From Candidatus Poribacteria bacterium (GTDB lineage Bacteria > Poribacteria > WGA-4E > PCPOR2b), in assembly GCA_965116925.1 (NCBI GenBank), contig OZ220744.1, forward strand, positions 5,568,001-5,632,000: a stretch of DNA of 64,000 nucleotides, read 5' to 3'. Positions 19,840 through 23,994 of this stretch are shown one piece after another. A program made the position numbers and the translations under genes. The notes below the pieces were generated by a model. It did no database searches. It saw nothing but the letters and a program-made list of their open reading frames with translations, and had not been told where the DNA came from. Position 1 is the first letter of the stretch. Each line of letters opens with the position of its first letter.

Positions 19840-19953
19840 TGCGCTGTTAGGGAGCTTTACGTAGGGACGCAATGGTGTCGAACCGTTCCACAGCATTTGG
19901 GTGAGTCAACCTTGTCCCTACCACCACGATTAAATTAGACCGTTCATGAATAG

Positions 19954-20126
19954 TAGGAGTTACGCACTTCAGATTGTAGGGAACGCAGATCTGCGTTCCC
20001 TACGAATTACTGTAGTTGCCCGATTCATCGGGCGTTGAGAGTTGGCCTGTGTGGCGATTTATCGCCGAACTACAGGTCGCAGACTCTCGGAACGGAGACT
20101 TTGAGCGTTCAACTGCGTAACTCCTA
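19954..20126 (+). mobile_element. Family-C MITE with REP cargo
   Basis: TAGGAGTTACGCA ... TGCGTAACTCCTA perfect 13 bp TIR; internal GTAG hairpins. Confidence 0.8.
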
Positions 20127-20154
20127 CATAAGTCAAATAGTGAGGATGTCAATT

Positions 20155-20946
20155 ATGTCGAATTACCTAGAACCGACACATCATAGAGATTGGAAAAATA
20201 ACAACTATCTAAAAATTTCGGGCTTCTTCTCAGATGAAGAGGTGACGGCATTGCAAGCGTGGGTCAAGGACATTGAGGGACGGAAACCGACCCATGACAA
20301 ATGGCTGCACCATTTTGAAGCCACGCCGGACGGGACGCGGCTTTCTCGTTCGGAAAATTTTGTGCCGTACCACACAGGTCTGGAGAAACTGTTGACGGGT
20401 GGCAAGGTGTTGGACGTTGTTTCGGAATTGATGGGCGAGCCGGCAGTCCTCTATAAGGAGAAAATCAATTACAAGTACCCCGGTGGTGGTGGTTACGCCC
20501 CACATCAGGATGCGCCCGCTTACGAGTTCGTTACATTCCATATTACCTGTTTGATTTCCGTTGATCCATCAACACCGGAGAGCGGTTGTCTCTCTTTCTC
20601 GCCGGGGCGATACGAAAAAGATTTCATTGCGCTCGATGAGAAGGGTTGTATTGCTGAGGAGGTCGCTTCGGAGATGGAATGGGTAGAGGTGCCAACAGAG
20701 CCGGGGGACATCCTGCTTTTTGGGTCCTATATCCCACATAAGAGCGGAGCAAACAGCTCCAATCAACCGCGACGCATCATCTATGTAACCTACAACGCCC
20801 TCTCCGAAGGCGATTGGCGGGAGCAGTATTACGAGGATAAGCGACAGGCCTTTTCGGAATATAAAAAAAGCAGTTCAGCAGAAGCAGGTCAAATCAGTAA
20901 AATTGGACACTTTCAGGGGAGGACGGTGCTGAACCATGAAAGATAA
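20155..20946 (+). CDS. phnY: PhyH-family Fe(II)/2-oxoglutarate dioxygenase, PhnY-like
   Basis: KEKINYKYPGGGGYAPHQD, PHKS...N...RR; adjacent to a PhnZ-like gene; track start lies inside a MITE. Confidence 0.7.
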   Translation: MSNYLEPTHHRDWKNNNYLKISGFFSDEEVTALQAWVKDIEGRKPTHDKWLHHFEATPDGTRLSRSENFVPYHTGLEKLLTGGKVLDVVSELMGEPAVLYKEKINYKYPGGGGYAPHQDAPAYEFVTFHITCLISVDPSTPESGCLSFSPGRYEKDFIALDEKGCIAEEVASEMEWVEVPTEPGDILLFGSYIPHKSGANSSNQPRRIIYVTYNALSEGDWREQYYEDKRQAFSEYKKSSSAEAGQISKIGHFQGRTVLNHER

Positions 20947-20952
20947 TGAGAC

Positions 20953-21285
20953 AATCCCAATGCTGTAGCGTTGGGTCAAATCGTATAACTTTAGTTGATT
21001 TTGCGTGTAAATGATGGTATACTTTTGGTACGTTCAAAAGCGGGAGAATGTCACCCTTGCAGCCTTGCAAGGTCGCCCGTCTCTCCAGTGACATGGGGAC
21101 TTTGGACGAGTGGCTAACCAAGCCACATAAGGACGAAAACCAAGTCCAAAATTGTATCACCGTCGCGGCGGGACACGCCGAGACGTAAAAATGCCTGTGG
21201 AGGGGCTGTAAGACCACGCTATTTTGCATGGCAAATCTCATCGAAGCAGGTATACGGTAGGGGTGCCCTTAGCGGGGCACACCCG
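20953..21285 (+). mobile_element. ORF-less IS200/IS605-like element with a promoter and structured omega-RNA-like sequence
   Basis: Hairpin 20956-20975; TTGATT-17-TATACT (20995-21023); pseudoknot 21040-21094; tnpB-3'-like GCCTGTGGAG...GTAAGACC...GAAGCAGG. Confidence 0.55.
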
Positions 21286-21319
21286 TAAGTCCGTTAAAAA
21301 CTCTCGAAGGAGATACAAA

Positions 21320-21958
21320 GTGATTACTAATAAGAATCCCAATGTTTCAACTTTGGGAGCGGTCAACAGTCGGATTGATCAAACGCTCGCGGAACAGCTG
21401 ACAGGTGCAACAGCAGCGGAGAAGGTTGCCACGCTGTTCGATTATATGGAACGTAGAGGACAGTCGTTTTACGATGAATCGGTGACGCAACTGCAGCACG
21501 CGTGTCAATGTGCGAATCAGGCACAGCTGCACGAAGGAAGTAGGACGCAGGTTGCGAGTGCTTTGCTGCATGACATCGGGCATTTCCTGCTAGACGAACA
21601 CAATGCCGAGAGTGACTTTTTGGAGGAAGATCAGAACCATGAGGAGGTTGGCGCAGATTATCTAGAACCGTTCTTCCCGGAGGCGGTTACAACGCCGATC
21701 CGATTGCACGTACCGGCGAAGCGGTATCTGTGCACCACCGACGCATCATACTACGACGGCTTATCCGAGGCGTCGAAAAGGAGTTTCCGAGTTCAGGGCG
21801 GGGTTATGTCGGACGAGGAACGGACAGCGTTTGAGGGCATCCCGCATTATCAAGACGCGCTCCAGCTGCGGCGGTGGGATGACCTTGCCAAGGTGAGGGG
21901 GTTAGAGACACCGACGCTTGATACTTACCGCGAGATTGTGCAAGCCTGCCTAAAATAA
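21320..21958 (+). CDS. phnZ: HD-domain phosphonate oxygenase (PhnZ/TmpB family)
   Basis: TQLQHA, ALLHDIGH, HEEVGA, HVPAKRYL, QGG, RRWDDLAK; GTG start after GAAGGAG. Confidence 0.8.
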   Translation: MITNKNPNVSTLGAVNSRIDQTLAEQLTGATAAEKVATLFDYMERRGQSFYDESVTQLQHACQCANQAQLHEGSRTQVASALLHDIGHFLLDEHNAESDFLEEDQNHEEVGADYLEPFFPEAVTTPIRLHVPAKRYLCTTDASYYDGLSEASKRSFRVQGGVMSDEERTAFEGIPHYQDALQLRRWDDLAKVRGLETPTLDTYREIVQACLK

Positions 21959-22285: not shown

Positions 22286-22364
22286 GGACCCGTAGTGTAG
22301 CCTGGTTTAACACATCTGCCTGTCACGCAGAAGATCGCGAGTTCAAATCTCGTCGGGTCCGCCA
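22286..22364 (+). tRNA. tRNA-Asp(GTC)
   Basis: Cloverleaf GGACCCG/CGGGTCC, anticodon loop CTGTCAC, TTCAAAT, encoded CCA. Confidence 0.97.
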
Positions 22365-22415
22365 ACTATTTATCTGTTTTGTATCAATATCTTTGCGGAA
22401 TTAAGGTTGGATTTT

Positions 22416-22489
22416 GGGCGGGTAGCTCAGTTGGCTAGAGCGACGGCCTTACAAGCCGTAGGTCACAGGTTCAAGTCCTGTTCCGCCTA
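22416..22489 (+). tRNA. tRNA-Val(TAC), CCA not encoded
   Basis: GGGCGGG/TCCGCCT acceptor stem, anticodon loop CTTACAA, TTCAAGT. Confidence 0.95.
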
Positions 22490-22543
22490 TCCCGATTCAT
22501 CGGGACGAAACGTCGAAATCAGAATTAAAAGCGACCCCTTGTC

Positions 22544-22622
22544 GGACCCGTAGTGTAGCCTGGTTTAACACATCTGCCTGTCACGCAGAAGATCGCGAGT
22601 TCAAATCTCGTCGGGTCCGCCA
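22544..22622 (+). tRNA. tRNA-Asp(GTC), identical second copy
   Basis: Exact repeat of 22286-22364. Confidence 0.97.
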
Positions 22623-22695: not shown

Positions 22696-23994
22696 GTGTT
22701 AGATCTCAAATTCATCCGCGACAACCCCGATGCAGTGCGAGCGATGCTAACCGCTCGCCGCATGACAGCACCGTTGGAGGAGCTTATTGAAGCAGACCGC
22801 AAATGGCGTGAACTGTTGGGGGAGGCAGAGTCACTCAGAAGTCATCAGAACACCGTCTCAAAAGGGATTGCACAACTCAAGCGAGACAAGCAGGACGCCT
22901 CCGAGCAGATCGCTGAGATGAGAACGGTGTCTCAGAAAATTAAGACGTTGACCGACCAGTCACAGAGCTACAGAAGTGAAGTCGATAAGATTATAGCACT
23001 TATCCCAAATATGCCGGATGCCAGTGCACCGATCGGGAATAGTGAAGCGGATAACGTTGAGATTAAGCATTGGGGAGAGATCCGGAACTTTGATTTTGAG
23101 CCGAAGCCGCATTGGGAACTTGCGGAGGCGTTGGACATCGTTGATTTTCAACGGGGAGCGAAGGTCGCCGGTAGCCACTTTGTGTTATACAAAGGGTTAG
23201 GGGCGAAATTGGAACGTGCACTGATCAACTTCATGCTCGATCTGCATGTCTCTCAACACGGCTACACAGAGGTCTCTCCGCCTTTTGTCGCTAACCGTCC
23301 AACGATGACGGGCACCGGGCAGTTGCCGAAATTTGAGTCGGATATGTATCGGTGCGATCGCGATGAGGAGAATGAGGAGATGGATCTCTTTCTCATACCG
23401 ACCGCAGAGGTGACGGTCACCAATATTTTCGCCGATGAGATTTTGAACGGCGAGGATCTGCCGATCTACTATACCGCATACACCCCCTGTTTCCGACGGG
23501 AAGCGGGTTCTTACGGTCGGGAGACACGCGGATTGCAACGGCTCCACCAGTTTGATAAGGTCGAGATGGTGAAATTCACCTTTCCAGAGACATCTTACGA
23601 TGAACATGAATCGCTGCTGCGTAATGGTGAAGCGGTCTTGCAAGCCCTCGATTTGCCGTATCGTGTCATCTCTCTTTGTACAGCGGACCTCGGATTTAGT
23701 GCGTCTAAATGTTACGATATTGAATTATGGGCACCGGTCGACGAAAAGTTCAATTTGGAAATATCTTCGTGTAGTAATTTTGAGGATTTTCAGGCGCGTC
23801 GTGCGAATATCCGTTTTCGTCGTGAGCCGGGCGCGAAACCTGAGTTGGTGCATACCCTCAACGCCTCTGGGACAGCGTTGCCGCGATTGGTTATCGCTAT
23901 CCTTGAAACGTATCAGCAGGCGGATGGGAGTATTCGGGTTCCGGAGGCTATTGTGCCTTATATGGGCGGGGTTGAGACAATTGAATTGACGTGA
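22696..23994 (+). CDS. serS: Serine--tRNA ligase
   Basis: MLDLKFIR, LIPTAE, FRREAG, HQFDKVE, EISSCSN, HTLNAS. Confidence 0.98.

Follow-up and report, generated by a model that had tools for sequence, protein, structure and literature searches.

The window (the whole stretch of DNA that was analysed, 64,000 nucleotides) comes from a genome of the sponge-dwelling Poribacteria. In it, a phnY-like gene is followed by a phnZ-like gene, which belongs to phosphonate breakdown, and the second codon of phnZ is interrupted by a gene-less IS200/IS605 mini-element of 426 bp. The features are as follows.

20155..20946, + strand: phnY-like methylphosphonate hydroxylase gene (NF052437, 337 bits, below the cut-off of 500)
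20936..20940, + strand: original phnZ start ATG plus AA, based on empty alleles; holds the target TGAA (20937-40)
20941..21366, + strand: whole mini-element, 426 bp, based on empty sites and an exact 426-nt joint
20952..20975, + strand: left end, with guide CAAT (20952-55) and a subterminal hairpin (20956-75), also present at a tnpA+tnpB element of a relative (genome G014, locus L245)
20995..21023, + strand: sigma-70-type promoter TTGATT-17-TATACT, the -10 box preceded by TG; predicted transcript start near 21030
21030..21108, + strand: leader RNA, based on covariation; no Rfam match
21031-37/21102-08, + strand: closing stem of the leader, 5'-terminal
21040-47/21073-80 plus 21055-61/21066-72, + strand: long hairpin of the leader, with a 7-nt bulge (21048-54)
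21083-87/21094-98, + strand: short hairpin of the leader; its loop (21088-93) pairs with the bulge, forming the knot
21110-26 and 21131-47, + strand: two hairpins with AACCAA-type loops, in the place of the tnpB gene
21162..21366, + strand: omega-RNA-like scaffold, starting in a remnant of the tnpB C-terminus (VAAGHAET*, 21162-88)
21162-70/21176-84, 21191-98/21246-53, 21214-17/21228-31, 21254-57/21291-94 and 21261-64/21281-84, + strand: scaffold stems, based on covariation
21295..21330, + strand: 36-nt insert found in a sub-lineage of minis; carries AAGGAG (21307-12) and, in the phnZ frame, GTG (21320-22)
21320..21958, + strand: phnZ-like HD dioxygenase gene, predicted 212-residue fusion (NF052439, 274 bits, below the cut-off of 300)
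21334..21366, + strand: right end, with guide GAAT (21334-37), hairpin (21338-57) and cleavage tetranucleotide TCAA (21363-66)
21367..21386, + strand: predicted guide made of phnZ codons 2-8, which match what follows TGAA at the empty site; its role is putative

Boundaries, ends and copies of the element

The phnY-phnZ junction is empty in all ten relatives' loci that were read, with ATG AAC AGT/AAT CGG or similar in place of the element. In addition, public contigs connect position 20938 to 21365, omitting 426 nt (two letters of the joint are ambiguous), in 4/4 runs of one contig set and 2/4 of another. Therefore, the element spans 20941-21366 and was inserted after ATGAA, within phnZ codon 2. 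A sequence-only reading of the window had placed a structured RNA at 20953..21285, between phnY and phnZ. The element it saw is real and its flanks are indeed phnY- and phnZ-like, but the extent was too short at both sides, missing the right hairpin and TCAA, and the interruption of phnZ with its restart was overlooked. The phnY stop codon TAA (20944-46) is provided by the first bases of the element, so that the protein ends in NHER* here versus NHEQSD* at empty sites. One relative (genome G005, locus L022) carries this insertion as well, and occupied and empty phnZ alleles are found side by side in the same sponge samples; any drive is thus incomplete. Other repeats lie nearby or in related loci. 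A short palindromic repeat with the core ATCCCGA..ATCGGG is repeatedly inserted in L023, L043, L045, L051, L035 and L040, and also in phnZ codon 3-4 of two relatives. Within the window, palindromic REP-like repeats are found at 19840-20135, between a metallophosphoesterase-like gene and phnY, and three tRNA genes, two of them identical, at 22286-22619, upstream of a seryl-tRNA-synthetase-like ORF at 22696.

The open reading frame listing gives no protein gene in the element, and copies are found at unrelated sites. Subterminal hairpins are present at both ends (20956-75 and 21338-57) with no terminal inverted repeats; the left one is the CCCAATGCT/AGCGTTGGG hairpin of the sequence-only reading. 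Insertion takes place 3' of a fixed tetranucleotide and duplicates no target sequence, the target being TGAA at 29 of 33 distinct mini sites and TGAC at two, with none identified at the remaining two. The tetranucleotides at the hairpin feet obey the IS608 pairing rule at 30/33 left ends and 31/33 right ends. Three IS608 guide pairs were used for this rule. Guide changes track the variants, CAAG occurring with TGAC and GAAC with TCAG. Two of the three guide pairs come from PMC3201880, and the GAAT/TCAA right end is the same as that of IS608 (PMC5934647).

Three short copies are present in the same genome (100, 95 and 75% identity), along with split matches about 1.25 kb apart, four of which carry long tnpB frames. 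These four have the same ends as the mini-element and C-termini of the form VAAGHAET*/VAVGHTET*, and the one long frame scanned matches NF040570 above cut-off. Matches are found in 21 of 41 genomes searched, 20 of the 21 within the genus, and congeners carry more than 30 short copies. Both end hairpins are present in 34 of the 37 short-copy loci parsed; six of the 37, with long inserts, other middles or missing ends, were dropped from the alignment of 31 mini copies used below. The same genome has five weak Y1 matches and no TnpA with the ends of the element, and relative G014 has an autonomous tnpA+tnpB element behind the same left end and a TTGAA site (L245). Thus, with its IS608-type ends, target, copies and empty sites, this is a non-autonomous IS200/IS605 mini-element (a PATE or stand-alone omega-RNA, a known kind), as the sequence-only reading had supposed, and a Y1 transposase presumably moved it in trans. 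Other mini lineages have different middle hairpins, with or without the leader (L009 at 5407700-5408080 in the same genome, L074, L068, L070, L048, L029 and L218), and one of them has its match in the guide scaffold of another TnpB family; minis without a leader are L029 and one near 863400 in the same genome. The shared end hairpin has about 60 matches in this genome, several in very short terminal-only remnants.

Start codons near the right end

The right end of the element (21334-21366) is without a stop codon in the phnZ frame. The GTG of the 36-nt insert lies 47 nt before the end of the element and its frame is open into phnZ. Residues 16-212 of the predicted fusion match positions 2-199 of the NF052439 profile, leaving about 15 element-encoded residues in front. 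A longer ORF from a TTG (21224-21958) was rejected; it crosses the scaffold and gains no support from the profile match. The insert is found in 11/34 minis, at 10 sites. Long fusions occur at two of these ten (phnZ and a GDSL hydrolase) versus none of 23 copies without the insert, and eight of the ten sites are not at gene starts.

The tnpB-carrying elements show the same arrangement more widely. From 69 loci, three without a parsed right end and three duplicates were removed, leaving 63 distinct sites, at 39 of which the right end carries a Shine-Dalgarno sequence and start codon. The start frame has at least 90 open codons at 29 of the 39 (the other two frames at one and two), compared with 5 of the 24 sites without such a start, one of the 24 being mis-parsed. 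Fisher's test gives p 6e-5 for this contrast, which is overstated because the contrast follows lineages and the sites are not independent. Pfam matches are found in 26/29 fusions, 16 of them beginning at residue 18-30, and the partners include CTP synthase, DHBP synthase/GTP cyclohydrolase II, GidA, NAD kinase and a penicillin-binding protein. Among the 21 fusion sites with a parsed left end (the other eight were dropped from the target count), 15 have ATGAA-like targets, one of them doubtful, and two have TTGAA. In these elements the start is an ATG 56 nt from the end, within a scaffold hairpin, while the mini GTG is in a separate insert in the same frame. This shared frame at a different position suggests that the start originated a second time in the minis. 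The ribosome site and GTG near the right end likely keep the interrupted phnZ working, with translation presumably starting at the GTG. A third variant, with its own GAGGA and ATG, is seen at the right ends of L146 and L185, the former fused to CTP synthase.

Scaffold, leader and transcription

The sequence from 21162 onwards translates as VAAGHAET*, the C-terminal residues of the sister TnpBs, and is colinear with their 3' ends as far as TCAA. The scaffold through to the right end is therefore homologous to tnpB 3' ends of the same genome, as expected for a stand-alone omega-RNA, and the omega-RNA-like 3' half described earlier stands, including the broken-frame readings AGHAET*, NACGGAVRP and SKQ. 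The region folds more stably than shuffled sequences (z-score -3.44). Over the 31 mini copies, with a mean identity of 69%, an 88-pair model has 90.9% of cells paired, and both sides have changed at 24 pairs, in 163 cells versus 58 in shuffles. None of 500 shuffles matches the model in paired percentage, cell count or score, with the caveat that related sequences can beat shuffles; slid controls reach 33-43%. Compensatory states recur two to nine times for 11/13 pairs on a tree from which the leader columns were left out. Core positions of the scaffold are invariant at this mean identity, and the second AACCAA loop is conserved in sequence across the mini copies.

Most helices proposed from the sequence alone are present: the ATGTCAC/GTGACAT pairing (21048-54/21088-94), the CCTTGC/GCAAGG hairpin, the TGGC/GCCA hairpin, the ATGCCTGT/GCAGGTAT pairing and the crossing strands 21040-47/21073-80, which form seven of eight pairs in the window copy. 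The exception is the GGACTTTGG/CCAAGTCC stem, which is 67.7% paired with no compensatory change, two of its pairs forming in only five and six of 31 copies. In its place are the stem 21031-37/21102-08, the hairpin 21083-87/21094-98 and a GGAC/GTCC hairpin (21131-47). In TnpB omega-RNAs a pseudoknot joins the scaffold and its 3' end. The candidate for this here, GACC/GGTC, shows mixed pairing and clashes with another stem. The mini version of the last inner 3' hairpin is found in none of the 69 tnpB loci, nor is the AACCAA loop motif, so no cognate TnpB was recognised among these loci. The 20-mer of the predicted guide is identical behind ATGAA in 3/10 of the empty alleles read. The scaffold is presumably used by a TnpB in trans.

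The leader folds as a three-way junction, made of a closing stem at the predicted transcript start, a bulged long hairpin and a short hairpin whose loop pairs with the bulge (6-7 nt among copies). Rfam 15 searched at E up to 10 gives no match to the element in the window stretch, and searches of the window stretch, of ten and of nine related loci (E up to 10, 5 and 1) give only tRNAs and chance matches. The sequence-only reading suspected a new RNA module in this 5' domain; it is uncatalogued in Rfam, but it is not peculiar to the element. By descriptor scan and inspection, the same fold occurs 5-15 nt after the -10 box and just before the tnpB start codon, in five or more tnpB families, whose identity to the query family is about 25-35%. 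Most tnpB messages in this genome have the 5' knot as their leader, and the mini inherited it. In 28 diverse leaders 88.8% of cells pair, and both sides have changed in 21/24 pairs, including all six loop-bulge pairs (0/500 shuffles as high). Leader models hit 33 and 39 places in the same genome, 25/29 genomes of its family and 79/150 of its phylum, across three families, as opposed to 0/150 genomes of another phylum (that of G153, titled Chloroflexota; with stricter filters) and chance-level matches only in three further non-Poribacteria sequence sets. Most of the distant matches directly precede tnpB; others are in minis, in non-coding repeats behind sigma-54-type boxes, and before ORFs with lipoprotein-like starts and without a Pfam match. 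By eye, tnpA-carrying elements are without the leader. A leader copy at 2911462 in the same genome was considered as a conserved single-copy locus and rejected, as its matches were other leader copies.

The repeats outside transposons are about 250-300 nt long, with the leader fold behind TGGCAC-N7-GC, which we take to be a sigma-54-type consensus. Copies are found in the same genome (C1 319821, 322168, 338628, 3117430 and 3232600), at L227-L243 and, up to seven, in genome G032; two of those in the same genome follow genes resembling PAS-domain sigma-54 activators. The leader directly precedes lipoprotein-like ORFs at L225:1535-1640, L237:1329-1580 and L238, and in L237 two leaders are back to back on divergent promoters.

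In 49/52 distinct non-mini leaders, the first strand has two tandem complements, in most cases separated by 7-9 nt, and the second of them lies at the ribosome site, its end a few bases ahead of the start codon. Shuffled downstream halves give this in 12% of cases and random re-pairing of leader halves in 63%, the latter value being high because most leaders share one strand type. The two-partner case therefore rests on the shuffle control and on divergent strand types, among which the first strand is wholly different in sequence. Seven leaders were folded, and the first strand was on the first copy in six and on the second in one. In coding elements, the leader is predicted to be a two-register translation gate, with the first strand on either the decoy or the ribosome-site copy. 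In the mini, the second partner copy (GGACG, 21131-35) is held inside the invariant hairpin 21131-47, making a 5'-end shield the likelier role, and the leader in the window most likely acts in this way. The leader conserves shape and few bases, which argues against a ribozyme or a small-molecule aptamer; a metabolite aptamer is disfavoured. Control by CsrA, or a CsrA decoy, was rejected, as PF02599 was not found in the 99%-complete genome.

The promoter match is weak by itself, since one site was found versus 0.6 expected in shuffles. Its -10 box is invariant or nearly so across the 31 copies. Eight of 14 public runs are RNA or guessed RNA, and six RNA runs from two sponge studies were used for depth; their contigs are unstranded and summed over related strains, so that all values are for the family and not the window copy alone. 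Depth at 21114-64 is 22, 281, 284, 935, 329 and 324 in the six runs, compared with maxima of 58, 40, 22, 10, 7 and 11 in flanking bins. At 20961-21011, over the left end, it is 0 in five of the six and 21 in one. Family RNA thus covers the interior and, in 5/6 runs, not the left end and promoter, a pattern compatible with the stand-alone transcript that the sequence-only reading had proposed. None of the three outcomes named as refuting that reading was seen: tnpB 3' ends are similar, the structure covaries, and there is RNA at the level of the family. In two large runs of unrecorded kind, by contrast, depth at 20961-21011 (123 and 675) exceeds that at 21114-64 (72 and 576). The pattern in the RNA runs is a weak hint of transcription from the internal promoter. 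Low cover at 21012-62 was rejected as a transcript boundary, because contigs continue upstream with diverged leader sequence. The unstranded contigs of the two studies show neither a transcript of the window copy itself nor read-through into phnZ.

Interpretation and relation to known systems

We consider it probable that the RNA of this gene-less mini-element in phnZ codon 2 is both a TnpB guide precursor and the phnZ message. The internal promoter would give a single RNA, its 5' end shielded by the leader, which would provide the guide-RNA precursor to a TnpB borrowed from relatives that carry tnpB and would also be, through AAGGAG and GTG in the right end, the message from which phnZ is translated. 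The TnpB would load the scaffold with about 20 nt of phnZ and cut TGAA-flanked empty alleles, repair of which would restore the element. A bolder version is possible but doubtful. In it, a gene-less transposon would have re-invented start-codon rescue, and one RNA would combine the phnZ message, a guide and a two-register leader of a new class; translation would then be in competition with 3' trimming and TnpB loading, putting phnZ under a borrowed nuclease, and the leader would be a Poribacteria-wide regulatory RNA common to transposons and host genes.

It is unlikely that the element is a mobile but functionally dead deletion derivative, with an inherited fold, a by-product RNA, no TnpB use and a GTG that is a lucky survivor. 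No cognate tnpB or tnpA is identified in the same genome, most GTG-insert sites are intergenic, and hairpin-templated repair in single-stranded transposition intermediates could yield some of the compensatory changes. However, these changes recur within the mini lineage in both scaffold and leader, including the loop-bulge pairs, the scaffold core is invariant at 69% mean identity, and a start was gained at another position in the same frame. There is a still smaller chance that the RNA is mainly a decoy, its leader and AACCAA hairpins titrating TnpB or a host RNA-binding protein that controls leader messages, with guiding secondary. The occurrence of the leader outside transposons (repeats behind sigma-54-type boxes, lipoprotein-like ORFs), the depth of family RNA relative to its flanks and the conserved second AACCAA loop would fit this, but scaffold and right end are retained in full and covary, the leader keeps shape and few bases, and no candidate protein was found, CsrA included. 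HDV ribozymes have a 3-bp P3 with a conserved L3, a P1.1 and a catalytic C in J4/2. It is very improbable that the 5' knot is a self-cleaving ribozyme of this type maturing the guide RNA: its helix order resembles P1-P2-P3-P1'-P2', but the Rfam ribozyme models gave no hit at E up to 10, the inner stem has 7-8 bp and a loop that varies (3-7 nt), no GG follows P1, no junction of catalytic type is conserved, and the fold sits at the predicted transcript start. The defining bases of HDV-like and hammerhead ribozymes are absent from the leader, and nothing in support of self-cleavage was found.

Gene-less guide-RNA elements are already known, whereas the leader and right-end start rescue are not in the literature searched, supplements excluded; elements of this type may appear in the supplements to Meers 2023 and Altae-Tran 2023. 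PATEs (Dyall-Smith 2011, PMC3119063) are likewise protein-free, share subterminal palindromes with IS605-type elements and make no target duplication, and those of G. stearothermophilus encode omega-RNAs for use in trans (Meers 2023, 10.1101/2023.03.14.532601). Unlike PATEs as described in these sources, the present element retains the tnpB promoter together with the knotted leader, adds two hairpins and brings a start of translation to the gene that it interrupts. With the stand-alone omega-RNAs of OMEGA systems it shares a mobilised guide scaffold without an effector, in a genome with effector-containing elements; activity in trans was shown there (PMC10691335), whereas here it is presumed, with no cognate TnpB among the 69 loci. 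The natural mini RNAs may serve directly as guide scaffolds, complete with a promoter, for a TnpB family that targets TGAA. Compared with IS608 (PMC5934647, PMC3201880), the right end, insertion 3' of a tetranucleotide and the two end hairpins are alike, but the left guide is CAAT and the target TGAA, versus AAAG and TTAC in IS608, and the element is without genes.

The 5' UTR stem-loop of IS200 tnpA (PMC4513863) is also a structured leader able to cover a ribosome site, of comparable purpose, but it is a simple stem-loop that controls tnpA; the present leader is a three-way junction in which loop and bulge form a knot and the first strand has two tandem partners, and it is found before tnpB and some non-IS genes. 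A 2026 preprint reports that Arc represses tnpB promoters, and the words 'leader' and 'pseudoknot' are absent from its available text (10.64898/2026.09.24.754181). As a compact covarying fold with no Rfam match, the leader offers a testable handle on what limits tnpB expression. IS605B/ISC elements with N|ATGA targets likewise have a target word overlapping the commonest gene start, with a different cut position, and the main text describing them uses neither 'start codon' nor 'translation' and does not relate ATGA-type targets to start codons (PMC4810608). In IStrons, an IS200/IS605-type element also renders its insertion harmless and one RNA has two uses (PMC4227781, PMC13565253). The 426-bp element has no Rfam intron match, and so no group I intron of the IStron kind; rescue would instead come from a start codon that the right end supplies, and only at gene starts. 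A replacement ribosome site and start codon would be an alternative to IStron splicing for neutralising an insertion, apparently gained a second time by a protein-free derivative.
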